A stretch of DNA of 64,000 nt from Pirellulales bacterium (GCA_017853835.1 JAFMIU010000003.1:41072-105071), one strand, 5' to 3'; positions 53,935-62,482 are shown, counted from the first letter of the stretch. Notes: generated by a model not told the origin, from the sequence alone. Program-made: numbers and translations.

Positions 53935-54690
53935 TCAGCCGCGACGGGCCCGACGCATCGCAAGGCCGCCACAGGCGACCGCAGCAACGGCCTCGACCCA
54001 CAGGGCCGGCTCCGGCACCGTCCGAACCTGAAATGCGTTGATCGCCGGCCTCTGCAACGCCACGCCGTTCAGATCGAAACTCTGCGACGTGGCATCGGCC
54101 GTAAACGTGCCGAAGACAAACTGGCCGACGCCTCCTGTAGTGTCGGACGTGTTGGAATCGAGCGTCACGCCGTTGCCGGCGGTGGCGGTCACCGACCCGA
54201 TGGGCGGAATGGGCGAGGAATTACTCAGCCACCACTGCAGCACATACGTCTGTCCGTTGGTGAGACCTCCGAGCGTGACGGTCAGCGTGTCAGGAAGGCC
54301 AGCGCCACCTGCCTCGTTGAGCAGCGCACGATACTCGCTGCTCAGGCTGGAGTACGGAGCGGAGGCAGAACCCAGACTGCTAAAAGCCGCGAGGAGGTCG
54401 GTCGACTCCGTGAAGGTGACATCTCCCACCGACACGGTCGTTCCGCTCACGGGATACGCGAAGGCTGCAAACGTGACGCCGTTCACCGTGGAAGGCGACA
54501 CCGTGTTGGGGCCGACATTGTAGGCGTATATCAGCGAGCCGGTGGTCGAGACGTCACTGTCGCCGGAGATCGTTTGCGGAGTCTCCCAGGTGATGACAGC
54601 CGCATCGGCAGAGAGCGAAGCGGCCGCCGCCACGATCATGCAGCACACCACGGGAAAAGCACGACGGACAAACGTCTGAAGCGAGGACAT
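53935..54690 (-). CDS. PEP-CTERM-anchored secreted protein
   Basis: Signal peptide MSSLQTFVRRAFPVVCCMIVAAAASLSADA. C-terminus VPEPALWVEAVAAVACGGLAMRRARRG. Confidence 0.8.
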   Translation of the reverse strand: MSSLQTFVRRAFPVVCCMIVAAAASLSADAAVITWETPQTISGDSDVSTTGSLIYAYNVGPNTVSPSTVNGVTFAAFAYPVSGTTVSVGDVTFTESTDLLAAFSSLGSASAPYSSLSSEYRALLNEAGGAGLPDTLTVTLGGLTNGQTYVLQWWLSNSSPIPPIGSVTATAGNGVTLDSNTSDTTGGVGQFVFGTFTADATSQSFDLNGVALQRPAINAFQVRTVPEPALWVEAVAAVACGGLAMRRARRG

Positions 54691-55008: not shown

Positions 55009-55959
55009 ATGAAGATCTTCTCGGTTCACCATCGTGCAGTCGACGGAGCGTGCCGAACGCTGATGGCGTGGCTCGCGTGCATGCCGGCCGTCTGGGCTCA
55101 GGCCACGGACACACCGGTAAACGCTCATGTTTCCGCCGTCGTGAAAGCAATCATGGCCGAGTCCGAGGCGACGGTGAAAGCCTTCAACTCGGGCGACGCA
55201 GCGGCGCTTGCCGCCATGTTCATCGACGACGGTGAACTCGTCGACGAAGACGGCACCGTCACTGAATCGCGTGCCGAGATCGCCGCACTTTTCGATCGAT
55301 TCTTCACTCGCTTCCCCAAGGCAACGCTCGAATTGGAGATCACCGACGCGCGTGAGATTGGCGACGTCGTCGTGATCGAGGAGGGAATGCGCCGCATCAC
55401 GACCGACCAGGGCGCGGCCACGGCGCAGGTGCGGTACGTCGCGGTGCGCACCAAGCAGGGCGACGCGTGGCCGCTCGCCTCGTATCGGGAGTTTTCCGAC
55501 GACCCCCTGCCCAGCCCAGCCGAGATGCTCGCATCGCTCGATTGGATCGTCGGCGACTGGCTTGATGAGAGCCCCGATGGCACGACGCAGATCAGCTATC
55601 GCTGGAGCGACGACGGCAACTTCCTGATCGGCGAATACAACCTGTCGGTTGGTGGAAAACCGACGGCCAAGAGTGTGCAGCGGATCGGCTGGGATCCCGT
55701 CGAGGGCACGCTCCGATCGTGGACGTTCGACTCCGACGGAGGGTTCAGTGAAGGGGAGTGGCTGGGCACCGACGATGGCTGGGTGGTCAAGTCGGAGGCG
55801 ACGCTTCCCGACGGCACCATCGGCTCGGCGACGATCACCATTCGGCCGTCCGACGCCGACCACCTGGTCGTGCTGAGCACCGATCGCATCATCGGCGGCT
55901 CCGAGGAGCCGGATTTCAAACTGGTCATCGCCCGCAGGCCTCCGCAACCCGGCAACTGA
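55009..55959 (+). CDS. secreted protein with two SnoaL/NTF2-like (DUF4440-type) domains
   Basis: GGGGAG before the ATG. Signal-like ..LMAWLACMPAVWAQA. Domain 1: KAFNSGDAAALAAMFIDDGELVDEDG..SRAEIAALFDRFF. Domain 2: LDWIVGDWLDESPDGTTQISYRWSDDGNFLIGEY. The track's 360-codon upstream extension is antisense to the PEP-CTERM gene. Confidence 0.65.
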   Translation: MKIFSVHHRAVDGACRTLMAWLACMPAVWAQATDTPVNAHVSAVVKAIMAESEATVKAFNSGDAAALAAMFIDDGELVDEDGTVTESRAEIAALFDRFFTRFPKATLELEITDAREIGDVVVIEEGMRRITTDQGAATAQVRYVAVRTKQGDAWPLASYREFSDDPLPSPAEMLASLDWIVGDWLDESPDGTTQISYRWSDDGNFLIGEYNLSVGGKPTAKSVQRIGWDPVEGTLRSWTFDSDGGFSEGEWLGTDDGWVVKSEATLPDGTIGSATITIRPSDADHLVVLSTDRIIGGSEEPDFKLVIARRPPQPGN

Positions 55960-56031
55960 CACGAACCGGCAGGCACATTCGTTTGTCGATTCGTGATTCC
56001 TGTTTCCCCCGTCATCGAGGAGAACCCACTC

Positions 56032-58380
56032 ATGCGGCTTTCGGCTGGATGCGCGTCTCTCGCTCTTCTCGTCCTGCTGGTCAGTGGCGTGGCTGACGCA
56101 CGGCCTGGCGGGGGCGGCGCGGCCCGCCCCTCGATGGGACGCGCTGGGGGTGGTGTGGCGCGGCCGGCGATGCCGGCAGGGAGGCCCACCATGCCGGCAG
56201 CGCGGCCCCAGATGCAGGCTCCCCGGCCGCAGATGCCGATGGCTCGCCCGAACATGCCGACCACACAGCGCCCCATCGGCAACCCGGGCGGTGCCGTGGG
56301 CGGCACGACACGCCCGCAGGTTCCGAATTTCCAACGGCCGACCGTTGGTTCCATGCAACGTCCGAACCTCGCGCGTCCGTCTCTCCCCAACGCATCTGTT
56401 CGTCCGCAACCACAGTCACCCATGCCCGGCATGGGGGCTCGTCCGGGTCTTGGATCGCTTCGGCCTTCGACACCCGCCACCATCCCGGGAGCGACCGGGC
56501 GGCCTGGCGGTGGATTTGCAACGAGACCGTCACCATTCCCTGGGCAGGGGAACATGGGCGGCCGGCCTGGCGGCGCAACGACGCTTCCCGGACAGATCGG
56601 GACGCGGCCCGGCGTTCCCACCACGAAGCCTTCATTTCCGACCCCCGGTCTTCCCGGCGCGGGAGGCGGCGTTGCGGGTGGCACTCGCCCCAACCGCCCC
56701 GGGCTTGGAGCGGCCAATCGCCCGACGACGCTTCCCGGAGCCATCGGTGGCAATCGTCCTGGCGTCGGCGGAGGTGGCAACCGTCCGACAACCCTGCCCG
56801 GTGACCTCACCGGCAATCGGCCGGGCCAAGGTGGAGGAAACGGACCGAACGCAGGTGGGAACCGTCCGGTCGGCCCTGGTGGCAACCGACCAGGGATCGG
56901 CGGCAATCGGCCCACGATCCTTCCCGGCGACCTGACTGGCAACCGGCCTGGCGTTGGCGGCAACCGGCCAGGCATCGGTGGCAATCGACCTGGCATCGGC
57001 GGCAATCGACCTGGCATCGGTGGCAATCGACCAGGCATCGGCGGCGATCGACCTGGCATCGGCGGCAATCGACCTGGCCTTGGGAACGACAACAACTTCT
57101 GGAACAGCGGTAACTGGAACAGCGGTAACTGGAACAGCGGCAACTGGAACAACAACATCATCGTTGGTGGTGGTGGCGGAGGCGGGGGCTGGAACGGTGG
57201 CGGATGGGGCTACCCGGGCTACGACGGTGGCCACGGCTGGAATCATGGATGGGTCAATCCGCACTACGACGGCTGGTACAACGGCGGATGGGGGAACAAC
57301 TGGGGCTATAACGGCGGGTGGTGGGCACCATTCCTCACCGGTGCGGCGACCTGGGGTTTGGTCTCAGGTCTGAGCGGCTGGGGGCTTGGCTACGGCACCC
57401 TCGGCTACGACTATGTCAACCCGTACTACTCGGCGATGCCGGCGGCCGTGGTGGCGTCGTCCCCCTACGACTACTCCCAGCCGGTGATCATCACCAACTC
57501 CATCCCGGCCGATGCGCCGGCTGCCGGTGCCGACCCGACGTCGGCCCAGCAGCCCGTCACCACGGAGCCTGCCGCAGCGGCTTCTCCTGCCGATGCTGCC
57601 GTCGACGCGGCACTCAGCGCCTTCAAAGCTGGTGACTACGCCGGCGCGCTGGCCGGCTTCGACAAGGCCCTGGCAATTTCACCCAAAGACTCCGTGATCC
57701 ACGAAGTGCGGGCGCTTGCGCTCTTTGCCCTCGGCCGCTACACCGAGGCAGCGGCGGCCCTCAATGCCGTGCTGGCCACGGCACCGGGCATGGACTGGAC
57801 CACCATGAGCAACATCTACGGCTCGGTCGACGCCTACACCGGCCACCTTCGCACGTTGGAGGCGTTTTGTCGCGCCCATCCCGACGACGCGGCGGCCCAG
57901 TTCGTCCTTGCCTATCACTATCTTGTCGGCGGCCACACCGACCTGGCCGCAACGGCCCTGAAGACGGTTGTGTCCGAGCAACCGGGAGACGTCGTCGCCA
58001 AGCGGCTCCTCGAGGCGATCACGCCGCCTGCCGCGGAGCGTCAACCTCCGTCATCGGATCCAGGCACCGCACCGACGGCCGAAGCGGCGTTGCCCGAGAT
58101 CGATCTCGTGGGCACGTGGAAGGCGACGAGCGGCAGCGACACGATCGAGTTGACGGTCACGGCGGAATCGGCGTTCACCTGGAAGGCAACGCCCGACGGC
58201 AAGCCGGTCGTCGAACTCAAAGGCACCATCGAAACCACCGCCGATGCGGTAGCACTGATCAGCGAGTCGGCAGGCACCATGATGGCCAAGGTCACGCCTA
58301 AGTCGGCCGACTCCTTCGAGTTTGCCCTGCCCGGCGCACCAAAGGAAGCCAAGCCGCTCGTGTTCACCCGCCAGCCATGA
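56032..58380 (+). CDS. secreted 782-aa protein: RP/GNRPG repeat region + WNSGN repeats + Gly/Trp/Asn/Tyr block + TPR-like domain + small beta-rich C-terminal domain
   Basis: GAGGAG before ATG 56032. Signal peptide MRLSAGCASLALLVLLVSGVADA. See the findings for the repeat architecture. TPR-like AAVDAALSAFKAGDYAGALAGFDKALAISPKD.. C-terminal LVGTWKATSGSDTIELTVTAESAFTWKATPDGKP.. Confidence 0.75.
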   Translation: MRLSAGCASLALLVLLVSGVADARPGGGGAARPSMGRAGGGVARPAMPAGRPTMPAARPQMQAPRPQMPMARPNMPTTQRPIGNPGGAVGGTTRPQVPNFQRPTVGSMQRPNLARPSLPNASVRPQPQSPMPGMGARPGLGSLRPSTPATIPGATGRPGGGFATRPSPFPGQGNMGGRPGGATTLPGQIGTRPGVPTTKPSFPTPGLPGAGGGVAGGTRPNRPGLGAANRPTTLPGAIGGNRPGVGGGGNRPTTLPGDLTGNRPGQGGGNGPNAGGNRPVGPGGNRPGIGGNRPTILPGDLTGNRPGVGGNRPGIGGNRPGIGGNRPGIGGNRPGIGGDRPGIGGNRPGLGNDNNFWNSGNWNSGNWNSGNWNNNIIVGGGGGGGGWNGGGWGYPGYDGGHGWNHGWVNPHYDGWYNGGWGNNWGYNGGWWAPFLTGAATWGLVSGLSGWGLGYGTLGYDYVNPYYSAMPAAVVASSPYDYSQPVIITNSIPADAPAAGADPTSAQQPVTTEPAAAASPADAAVDAALSAFKAGDYAGALAGFDKALAISPKDSVIHEVRALALFALGRYTEAAAALNAVLATAPGMDWTTMSNIYGSVDAYTGHLRTLEAFCRAHPDDAAAQFVLAYHYLVGGHTDLAATALKTVVSEQPGDVVAKRLLEAITPPAAERQPPSSDPGTAPTAEAALPEIDLVGTWKATSGSDTIELTVTAESAFTWKATPDGKPVVELKGTIETTADAVALISESAGTMMAKVTPKSADSFEFALPGAPKEAKPLVFTRQP
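56938..57084 (+). repeat. 7 tandem in-frame copies of a 21-bp unit (GGCAAYCGRCCWGGCRTYGGY = GNRPG[I/V]G)
   Basis: Units start at 56938, 56959, 56980, 57001, 57022, 57043 and 57064. Units 3-6 differ by only 1-2 nt. More degenerate copies extend upstream to about 56700. Confidence 0.95.
57100..57144 (+). repeat. 3 tandem in-frame copies of a 15-bp unit (TGGAACAGCGGYAAC = WNSGN)
   Basis: Units at 57100, 57115 and 57130, followed by TGGAACAACAAC. Confidence 0.95.
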
Positions 58381-58408: not shown

Positions 58409-58924
58409 TCACGTCTCGTCACTGAGCATGTCGGCATAGGCGCCGTGCAGCAGGCTGGTCTCCTCGATGCCCAGACGCGACATGAGGTCGGCGGCGATCG
58501 CGTGGCCCTCTGCCTCTGATTGCCCTTCCCGAAGCACTACTTCGAGTTCGACGAAGTCGCCGAGCCCCACGACGGCATCGAGGTGCACGCGGGTCTGCCC
58601 CACGACAAAAAGATGCCGCGTCTTGTCGACGACCCTGGTTTGCCCAAGAGCCTGATCGAGAAGGCCGAGAAGGCTTGCCGCATCCTCGACCGGCATCACC
58701 GTGTAGTCGGATCGCTTGCTGCCAGCCGTGTCGGAACGGCGGTACCAGATGAGCTCACACCGACCCGTGGCGATCTGACGAAGCTTGAGCCGCCCGGTCG
58801 TGCACGCAAAGAACACATCTCGCTGCACGAGGGTTTCGCCGGGACCATCGGCGATGGCCCTGACCCTCGCGTGGATCGCCTCGGCATCTGGTACCCGAGC
58901 CTTGATTTCGACATTGGTGGGCAT
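58409..58924 (-). CDS. CYTH-domain protein (class IV adenylate cyclase / triphosphate tunnel metalloenzyme-like)
   Basis: [13 protein letters not shown].. start, then ..VQRDVFF..GRLKLRQ..ELIWYRR.. and [18 protein letters not shown], typical of CyaB-like CYTH proteins. ATG 58924 chosen. Confidence 0.7.
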
Positions 58925-59071
58925 CGCCCCGTCACTCCACGGGCCTGGCATCCATCTCGTGGTGGACCGCCGATCCGGGAAGCGTACCCGCGTGGGAAAC
59001 GAGCTGCGTCCCCTTTTTGCTCAAGCCGCGGTAGGATTGCGGCTTTTCCGCCCCGCCCCACGTCACCGACC

Positions 59072-62000: not shown

Positions 62001-62482
62001 TCCCGAAGGCCCGCGACGCGCTCGTGAAGGGGGATGCGGCGGCCCTCCTGGCAGCCCTGGCAGCGCATGGCCGGGCCGAGGTGCCGCTTGCGGGCGGTGG
62101 CGTGGCGGTGATCGAACCTGGCGACGTGCTCGTACGGACCACCGCCAAGCCTGGCTGGGCGGCGGCGGAAAGCCCGCGGGCAGTGGTGGTGATCGCCAAG
62201 GACCTCACGCCCGAGCTCATCGCTGAAGGACTCGTGCGCGAGGTCGTGCACGCGATCCAGACGGAGCGAAAGCAGCTCGACCTCGACTTCACCGACCGGA
62301 TCGACCTCGTCTTCGCGACCGAATCGGAGGCTCTCCGAGCGGCCATCGAACACCATCGCGACTATGTCGCGTCGGAAACGCTCGCCGCCTCGCTCCACTT
62401 CGGCACGCCTCCGGCCGGGGCCGAACCCCACGACATCGACGGCCATCCGCTGGCAATCGCGGTCGCGAAGGCATCCTCATGA
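59072..62482 (+). CDS. ileS: isoleucyl-tRNA synthetase (type 2, long form)
   Basis: [16 protein letters not shown] (HIGH), WDTHGLPVE, editing-domain region, and KMSKSKRNY (KMSKS). The track's 184-codon upstream extension is antisense to the CYTH gene. Confidence 0.95.

Follow-up and report, generated by a model that had tools for sequence, protein, structure and literature searches.

Several exported bacterial proteins in which a short array of tetratricopeptide repeats (TPRs) is the only module recognisable from the sequence are known as adaptors of the cell envelope, such as NlpI, LpoA, CpoB/YbgF, PilF/PilW, BamD and MamA. Proteins with the NTF2 fold are known from other settings; the NTF2-like domain of G3BP1 is reported to bind an FxFG peptide, a precedent for the recognition by such folds of short motifs located in disordered proteins (PMC3852005). 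Here we describe a gene of a Pirellulales bacterium (GCA_017853835.1) that is located at positions 56032-58380, on the plus strand, of a stretch of 64,000 nucleotides (JAFMIU010000003.1:41072-105071; this whole stretch is the window in what follows). It codes for an exported protein of 782 amino acids (aa), the target, in which an arm of Arg and Pro precedes a Trp block, TPRs and a small barrel. An earlier note on this DNA, made from the sequence alone, had drawn attention to this gene and had overlooked the one directly upstream (55009-55959, plus strand), which codes for an exported acidic protein of 316 aa with a tandem NTF2-like organisation, the partner, and is the strongest clue to function that we have found. 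The two genes form a module that is inherited, duplicated and diverged together.

The evidence for the module comes from the comparison of loci. Searching by tblastn with the partner and with the folded head of the target (the part that contains the TPRs and the barrel), we found both genes adjacent and in the same orientation, with the partner directly upstream, in 86 of 105 loci, and in most of the remaining 19 the upstream sequence ends at a contig edge. The adjacency extends to paralogues of 35–46% identity, to closed genomes and, in another class, to one genome (L109). A single genome has five paralogues, of which four come with a partner paralogue of their own (L100-L103), and the distances among these four pairs are mirrored between head and partner (0.21/0.28, 0.33/0.38 and ~0.55/0.68). 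Head and partner distances were correlated with r = 0.92, a value that none of 5000 permutations reached in a Mantel test. The correlation and the mirrored distances therefore indicate that both genes duplicate and diverge as a unit. In the window they are separated by a spacer of 72 nt (55960-56031, plus strand; the median over 85 pairs is ~52 nt), where a promoter and terminator scan showed no promoter-like or terminator-like site, and the module is probably an operon. Two lake metatranscriptomes contained contigs of 151–274 nt with 0–1 mismatches within the target gene, and one contig (X22; 55744-56017, 0 mismatches) covers the 3' end of the partner and continues through the spacer, which is weak evidence for the expression and co-transcription of the pair. 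Besides the partner, no neighbour was universally conserved in the loci compared.

The partner starts with a signal peptide, followed by an NTF2 domain of the SgcJ/EcaC/DUF4440 type (domain 1, residues 47-161), and residues ~165-316 form another conserved domain (domain 2). Domain 1 is above the cut-offs of Pfam DUF4440 (PF14534; 1.6e-11, 45.1 bits, cut-off 25.2) and of TIGR02246 (51.6 bits, cut-off 33.95), and its profile found in the PDB 3h51 (7.7e-11) and SgcJ (4i4k), with 3hx8 and 3cu3 as other best relatives. Membership in the SgcJ/EcaC/DUF4440 family applies to this domain only. Domain 2 (~150 aa) had no Pfam family match, its PDB profile gave only a weak match to RsfG (7qh3, 0.023), and BLASTP showed no homology between it and the barrel of the target. 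Although domain 1 places the partner close to SgcJ/EcaC (TIGR02246), DUF4440, SnoaL-like and CaMKII-association-domain NTF2 proteins, it differs from all these in being exported, strongly acidic, fused to the ~150-aa second domain and locked in synteny to the TPR gene. Its acidity is the counterpart of a charge dipole in the target, whose arm has a net charge of about +29 to +33 and whose later regions are all acidic. In the window the net charges are +29 for the arm, -16 for the head and -26 for the partner, and the medians over 84 pairs are +33, -14 and -17.

Like the envelope TPR adaptors, the target is exported, has a short TPR array as the only module recognisable from sequence, and has TPRs that are structurally near CTPR and MamA-type TPRs. 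However, it has no lipobox and falls far below the NCBIfam cut-offs, and only the target has a polycationic arm, an aromatic block, an NPYY/YDYSQP segment, a lipocalin-like barrel and an NTF2 partner. The pair also resembles NTF2 with the FG-nucleoporins, and the NTF2-like domain of G3BP with its FGDF/FxFG motifs, in that an NTF2-fold protein goes with a disordered protein, rich in Gly, that bears short motifs with Phe or other aromatic residues; paralogues of the target open with RGFGGGG/GGFRGG/GGFHGG repeats. This is nevertheless an analogy of parts, with homology shown only at the level of the NTF2 superfold, the system described here is bacterial and extracytoplasmic, and the arm of the window protein is rich in Arg-Pro and poor in Phe.

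The reality of the target gene was assessed from several sides. The open reading frame (ORF) scan of the window gave a long ORF on the plus strand, at 55993/56032-58380. Translation probably begins at the ATG at 56032, which is favoured over an upstream GTG because full-length homologues share the same start (MRLPAARV..., MRLSTARAW...), and gives the protein of 782 aa with the N-terminus MRLSAGCASLALLVLLVSGVADA followed by RPGG. The source metagenome-assembled genome (MAG) has 3.9 Mb, is 93.6% complete and contains the gene in single copy; the only other TPR match in the same genome (L006) is a membrane PMT-like TPR protein unrelated to the target. That the gene could be a low-complexity assembly artefact or a non-functional ORF was worth considering, as the heptad array described below breaks the short unitigs of Logan (the copy number of seven comes from this assembly alone) and repeats at the N-terminus are often cut off by gene callers. 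Nevertheless, this is effectively refuted. At least five independent metagenomes, from freshwater or groundwater, contain the sequence, and in four of them contigs match the target with 0 to few mismatches; an independent assembly contains a near-identical product (P0002, with the gene call shortened to 608 aa); the full architecture is kept in hundreds of genomes, closed ones included; the heads of orthologues are 60–80% identical with intact frames, and transcript fragments exist. The repeats, which the earlier note had considered might be an artefact of assembly, are thus genuine.

The N-terminal 23 residues (56032-56100, plus strand; MRLSAGCASLALLVLLVSGVADA and then R) are a Sec-type signal peptide, as had been read from the sequence before. 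The hydrophobic core is followed by an AxA cleavage site (VADA, cut before RPGG), homologues keep equivalent N-termini, and residues 1-25 are the sole stretch of the target with a Kyte-Doolittle value >1.6. There is no twin-arginine motif in the signal peptide, and no lipobox ([LVI][ASTVI][GAS]C) at the cleavage site, where the peptide ends in VADA before R; the only Cys of the protein is residue 7, ahead of the hydrophobic core, at a position where Cys is missing from most homologues. Because a signal peptide is present and no other hydrophobic segment is found, the target is predicted to be a Sec-exported, non-lipidated and soluble protein without membrane-spanning segment.

Next comes the polycationic arm, disordered by its composition (residues 24-354, 56101-57093, plus strand), with 36 Arg, 1 Lys, 4 Asp and no Glu as charged residues. 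Its first part is rich in RPxM(P) and its second part in (G)NRPG and NRPTTLPG. Pro follows Arg in 35 of the 36 Arg of residues 24-384, and these 35 RP dipeptides compare with an average of 6.1 and at most 14 over 2000 composition-preserving shuffles, which bears out the recurrence of RP pointed out in the earlier note. The (N/D)RP units number 15, and 11 of these are (N/D)RPG, for which about 15 had been given there. The seven heptads in perfect phase were found again, both by pattern positions and by Tandem Repeats Finder: out of nine G(N/D)RPG(I/V/L)G heptads in total, seven stand in unbroken phase at residues 303-351 (56938-57084, plus strand), corresponding to a 21-nt tandem unit repeated 6.7 times (56938-57078, 88% matches, score 205). 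Another 21-nt unit is repeated 3.9 times at 56158-56238. The heptad array is probably variable in length. In one sequencing run (X1) a contig with a depth of 2.5, against 16.5, joins 56913 to 57089 through 13 other letters and skips 175 nt of heptads; it is probably a co-occurring strain or relative carrying fewer GNRPGIG units.

Among 70 orthologues, the protein varies between 628 and 1057 aa. The arm is variable in length yet not featureless, because several conserved islands persist among them: RPQ.PNFQRP, RPSLP.A, PGGGFA.RP, TTKP.FP.PG, NRPTTLPG and RPGIGGNRPG. In the target the arm peptides include RPTTLPGDLGGNRPG, RPQVPNFQRPTVG and PGGGFATRPSP. These short motifs are conserved although the arm otherwise evolves fast and varies in length. 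In the 79 full-length members of the family, where the arm measures 232–551 aa and is always net positive (median +24), the motif [ST]LP[GSAT], as in RPTTLPG, appears 1.8 times per protein versus 0.075 in shuffles. The N-termini of the paralogues (L098, L100-L104, L106, L109) nearly all open with RG(F)GGGG(R/F)GGGGG, of the RGG/FGG type, right after the signal peptide; the counterpart in the window protein is weaker, RPGGGGAARP...GRAGGGVARP. A long, Pro-rich and charged extended region in the envelope is also found in TonB/TolA-type periplasm-spanning proteins, although the target uses the dipeptide RP only and not EP/KP blocks. A force transducer of this type was ruled out, as the signal peptide is cleavable and not a transmembrane anchor, and Pfam gave no TonB_C or TolA domain.

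After the arm there is an aromatic block of putative stickers (residues 355-430, 57094-57321, plus strand), with three WNSGN pentads (residues 357-371), a run of eight Gly (379-386) and a segment of Gly, Trp, Asn, Tyr and His, all of them as the earlier note had quoted. The pentads appear in the DNA as a 15-nt unit repeated 3.5 times (57099-57151, 97% matches). In the target the block is almost free of Arg, and the same separation is seen in the 79 members: in the 100 aa before NPYY, W/Y/F/H reach 28% and W alone 11%, versus 3.6% and 0.4% in the rest of the arm, while Arg behaves in the opposite way (5% versus 11%). The block had no Pfam match, and in AlphaFold2 its predicted local distance difference test score (pLDDT) was below 35. 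It is followed by a near-invariant segment (residues 431-486, 57322-57489, plus strand), with the pattern WWAPF..GAATWGL.S....WGLGYG.LGY.YVNPYY..PA.VVASSPYDYSQP and invariant columns in the comparison of the 70 orthologues. The hydrophobic stretch described in the earlier note lies here, at residues 431-455, and as a conserved segment it stands; as a membrane helix it was ruled out, with a mean Kyte-Doolittle value of ~0.8 (against a threshold of ~1.6), which does not put it among the hydrophobic maxima of the target, and with Arg, Asn or His inside it in the paralogues. For both reasons we consider it a conserved soluble segment. The near-invariant segment is probably an interaction surface, or folds on binding.

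The TPR domain occupies residues 519-663 (57586-58020, plus strand). Pfam TPR_19 scores 49.1 bits (cut-off 25) at residues 520-655, and TPR_16 (44.3, cut-off 32.7), TPR_2 (38.2, 27), TPR_14 (33.4, 23.5) and TPR_20 (28, 25) are also above their cut-offs. In an AlphaFold2 model of residues 385-782, with 36 homologues in the alignment, the domain forms nine helices, some four TPR-like repeats, with pLDDT 80–90, and Foldseek matched this region in the PDB to CTPR and MamA (both at E ~1e-6) and to the TPRs of OGT. With the Pfam cut-offs passed and a helical repeat fold, the target belongs to the TPR repeat superfamily, and the TPR-like region seen earlier is confirmed. The family signatures here are HEVRAL.LFALGRY and APGMDWTT. 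In Pfam and NCBIfam only TPR models match the target. The named envelope TPR families (PrsT, PilW, YbgF/CpoB, NlpI, BepA, Tgl, PgaA, BcsC and MamA) were all rejected, being far below the NCBIfam cut-offs: the best scores were 32 bits versus cut-offs of 312 (PrsT) and 200 (MamA), followed by PilW (24.7 versus 154), YbgF (22.6 versus 90) and NlpI (13.4 versus 250). CnoX/YbbN was also discarded, since only the TPR_20 segment (residues 603-652) matches and Pfam found no thioredoxin domain.

The last domain is an eight-stranded mini-barrel (residues 691-782, 58102-58377, plus strand) that starts with DLVGTWKA. Within the model of residues 385-782 the eight strands extend over residues 694-780 with pLDDT >90. 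As Foldseek with this 398-residue model gave only generic TPR matches, the C-terminal domain was modelled alone, and again gave eight strands (pLDDT 87.5, predicted template modelling score 0.76). Its top PDB matches were small bacterial lipocalin-like proteins (5byp, 4gzv, 4qrl, 5cyb/3ge2, 4u3q and 2mhd), with TM-scores for the query (TMq) of 0.60–0.68, E values from 3e-3 to 1e-2 and identities of 9–18%; almost all of the top 20 were lipocalin-like (TMq 0.5–0.68, probability 1.00). The structure search that had been recommended for the last ~260 residues has thus yielded both TPRs and a lipocalin-like barrel, and the beta-rich C-terminal domain of about 95 aa described from the sequence takes shape in the models as an eight-strand barrel. 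The barrel is lipocalin/calycin-like at the level of the predicted fold only; Pfam gave no match at E<=10 for residues 682-782, and there is no membership by sequence of a lipocalin-type family. Like the small lipocalin-like barrels of Bacteroides (4gzv, 4qrl, 5byp), Streptococcus pneumoniae SP_0198 (3ge2, 5cyb), Treponema pallidum TP0435 and the N-domain of NlpE, it has eight antiparallel strands in ~90 aa and an N-terminal G-x-W. In contrast to them, identity is only 9–18%, the Foldseek E value only ~3e-3 and Pfam finds no lipocalin, and the barrel is the C-terminal domain of a multidomain protein instead of a stand-alone lipoprotein.

The target is a member of a large family, often in several copies, that is spread across Planctomycetia, and not an isolated oddity, as the comparison of homologues proposed in the earlier note has revealed. 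A word-indexed search with residues 470-782 gave >500 matches, the top 120 of which share 60–79% identity over all 313 residues, derive from MAGs that carry the labels Pirellulales, Planctomycetia or Planctomycetaceae, and bear 'tetratricopeptide repeat protein' as their sole name; looking through the clusters for cultured homologues with names was of no help. An exhaustive phmmer search on cluster representatives recovered 736 clusters at E<=1e-30. At the same threshold there were matches in 145 of 301 sampled Planctomycetia genomes (88 of 163 genera, 1 to 6 or more copies each), over several families, some with genomes of 10–16 Mb, and a search at the level of the phylum indicated that strong matches are nearly confined to Planctomycetia. 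The 80 closest loci in species-representative genomes are all from uncultured lake MAGs. Full-length members keep the whole plan down to 35–45% identity, from N to C a signal peptide, an arm rich in Gly/Arg/Pro/Ser/Asn, the aromatic block, the conserved motifs, the TPRs and the barrel. The type of arm repeat differs among members (RPxM, NRPD or RGG/FGG), and the shared motifs are W..P....WGL......YNPY(Y) and Y(D/N)YSQP, HE(V/F)RAL and APG(M/W)DWTT in the TPRs, and DLVG.W at the start of the barrel. The design is therefore constant: an arm of 230–550 aa, an aromatic block of ~80–100 aa, a segment of ~56 aa, TPRs and a mini-barrel. We found no description of the family or of the pair in the literature searched in full text. 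The earlier note could name no characterised family with this architecture, and with only generic TPR models matching, neither can we. The architecture and the two-gene organisation are undescribed, while the TPR, lipocalin-like and NTF2 folds are of known kinds.

We propose, with a probability of about 0.4, that the pair forms or organises a multivalent scaffold or matrix in the envelope. The idea of an envelope scaffold or a polyanion binder, possibly of condensate-like nature, had already been put forward; it is plausible and better motivated than before, because arm, acidic head and acidic partner are complementary in charge and the arm has conserved motifs. The acidic NTF2 partner would dock on the folded head after export, the barrel being the most likely site because the three distant relatives that have no barrel (L107, L108 and L110) have no partner either, which hints that barrel and partner go together. 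Motifs of the arm that contain Phe or Leu-Pro may be an additional or alternative site. A docked partner could keep the +30 arm soluble, neutralise or gate it, or control assembly. The TPR groove would take short linear motifs, either of the RPxTLPG type from neighbouring molecules or from a client protein, and cation-pi contacts between the Arg of the arm and the Trp/Tyr of the aromatic block, together with electrostatic contacts between arm and head, would produce a network of molecules. These molecules may also attach to anionic polymers of the envelope, either on the cell surface or within the enlarged periplasm of planctomycetes, and the length of the arm might be tuned by gain and loss of repeats. 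Several points weigh against such a scaffold. Lipocalin and NTF2 folds bind small hydrophobic ligands more often than proteins, and a periplasmic location is not distinguishable from a surface one by sequence. The link between barrel and partner comes from three barrel-less relatives only, and one paralogue of 1020 aa (L099) has the barrel and no adjacent partner. Expression rests on four short contigs with a depth of 2–4, for which DNA carry-over is possible, and in the AlphaFold2 model of residues 385-782 neither the aromatic block nor the near-invariant segment was modelled with confidence.

The preference of both folds for small ligands leads to another explanation, in which the cavities of barrel and NTF2 domain would hold a lipid, quinone, carotenoid or hopanoid-type molecule, the pair would shuttle or buffer it across the wide periplasm, and the arm would only tether the carrier to the anionic membrane or wall. 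The two folds are classic binders of small ligands (lipocalin-like lipoproteins on one side, SgcJ and ketosteroid-isomerase-like matches on the other), at least 38 orthologue loci have a fatty-acid desaturase gene immediately before the pair, and 5 of the 13 loci examined have a GDSL/HAD hydrolase gene in the vicinity. However, neither the window nor any of the paralogue loci has the desaturase, which makes it a case of lineage synteny and not a part of the module, no residues for ligand binding were identified, and the constant design of arm, aromatic block and TPRs, the arm motifs and the charge match with the partner would be left unexplained. We consider this explanation unlikely. Still less probable is that the target is a secreted adhesive or surface coat, serving as holdfast or in aggregation or attachment to particles, with the Arg arm and the Trp/Tyr/Gly/Asn block working as a cation-pi underwater adhesive and the TPRs and barrel as the cell anchor. 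The composition of the aromatic block (G/N/W/Y, with Arg nearby) might recall adhesives of the mussel-foot-protein-3 type, six or more copies are found in surface-attached planctomycete families with large genomes, and a varying repeat length is typical of surface proteins. Yet a signal for secretion through the outer membrane or for sorting, like the PEP-CTERM used elsewhere in this genome (53935-54690), is missing from the target, small-genome planktonic lineages from lakes retain a single copy, and a strongly conserved head with a dedicated soluble partner would be unusual for a simple adhesive.

The comparison with which we started suggests a classical periplasmic TPR adaptor like NlpI, LpoA, CpoB or PilF, by which one enzyme or machine of the envelope would be recruited or regulated, with the arm as an inert spacer. 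LpoA and LpoB span the periplasm by means of long disordered linkers, and the TPRs of the target have sub-threshold similarity to PilW, YbgF, NlpI, BepA and MamA. On the other hand, every named NCBIfam model was 3–60 times under its cut-off, the lipobox is missing, no envelope enzyme gene is conserved beside the pair in the loci compared, and, were the arm an inert spacer, paralogues of 35% identity would not retain its motifs, its constantly positive charge and a distinct aromatic block. We judge this possibility quite improbable, to about the same degree as the adhesive.

Returning to the scaffold that we favour, its most far-reaching form would be an extracytoplasmic phase, condensate-like or gel-like, in which the target acts as a 'block-copolymer' protein and the acidic tandem NTF2-fold protein as the receptor that gates its assembly. 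By analogy this could be a bacterial counterpart, in the periplasm or at the surface, of the logic of NTF2/FG-repeat and G3BP systems in eukaryotes, and the 1 to 6 or more paralogous pairs would stand for distinct phases or specificities. The grammar of stickers and spacers can be seen in the sequence, with the Arg and the aromatic blocks segregated and the charge of the arm opposite to that of head and partner, but we regard this extension as very doubtful, more so than either the adhesive or the adaptor. If the envelope matrix is real, it would be a rare bacterial case of an extracellular sticker-and-spacer system with its own receptor. The planctomycete envelope is unusual, enlarged and poorly understood, and few of its lineage-specific proteins have a known role. 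The module described here is present in about half of the sampled Planctomycetia genomes, often in multiple copies, and follows a strict plan in which two co-evolving genes combine a disordered arm with charge and an aromatic block with three folds of the kind that binds ligands or peptides. For annotation, it means that hundreds of entries named 'tetratricopeptide repeat protein' are one definable family with an obligate partner gene.

The surroundings of the pair vary among loci. Where a fatty-acid desaturase gene immediately precedes the NTF2 gene, in the orthologue loci L001-L004 and no fewer than 34 others (e.g., 5859-6917 in L002), a protein of ~650 aa without known function and a HAD-GDSL hydrolase are found further upstream, and a GDSL-like gene is located just downstream of two paralogues (4756-5778 in L100 and 7946-8950 in L103), which may be a loose lipid or esterase link. 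A wider operon was rejected, as the synteny of the desaturase, the ~650-aa protein and the HAD-GDSL gene is limited to some of the orthologues, and the window and most paralogue loci do not have them. The place of the desaturase in many orthologous loci is taken in the window by a gene on the minus strand (53935-54690) for a secreted protein of 251 aa without Pfam match, whose end (VPEP, a hydrophobic stretch and RRARRG) is a sorting signal of the PEP-CTERM type. On the other side, 28 nt past the stop codon of the target, there is a convergent gene for a CYTH-domain protein (58409-58951, minus strand; Pfam 4.2e-17), and beyond it IleS, which ends at 62482; neither is conserved in homologous loci.

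The distant relatives without barrel and without nearby NTF2 partner gene come from other classes of Planctomycetota (L107 in G234, L108 in G111 and L110 in G171). They have a signal peptide, a very long arm rich in Ser and Arg, RS-like (e.g., SSRPSSRPSSPSRVRSS), a His/Tyr/Trp/Gly block and TPRs.

Two observations concern the database records. Gene calls often begin at an internal Met within the repeats, giving 446–608 aa in place of ~700–860 aa (P0002, P0003, P0008, P0016, P0057, P0272 and many others), and one shortened call of 332 aa is named 'Thioredoxin domain-containing protein'; the family is systematically mis-annotated by this N-terminal shortening. Besides, contigs carrying a Pirellulales-type pair (L022, L041, L045, L049, L066 and L087 among others) are titled 'Candidatus Kuenenia stuttgartiensis', 'Chitinophaga' or 'Chitinophagaceae', titles that are likely taxonomic mislabels of the deposited bins.

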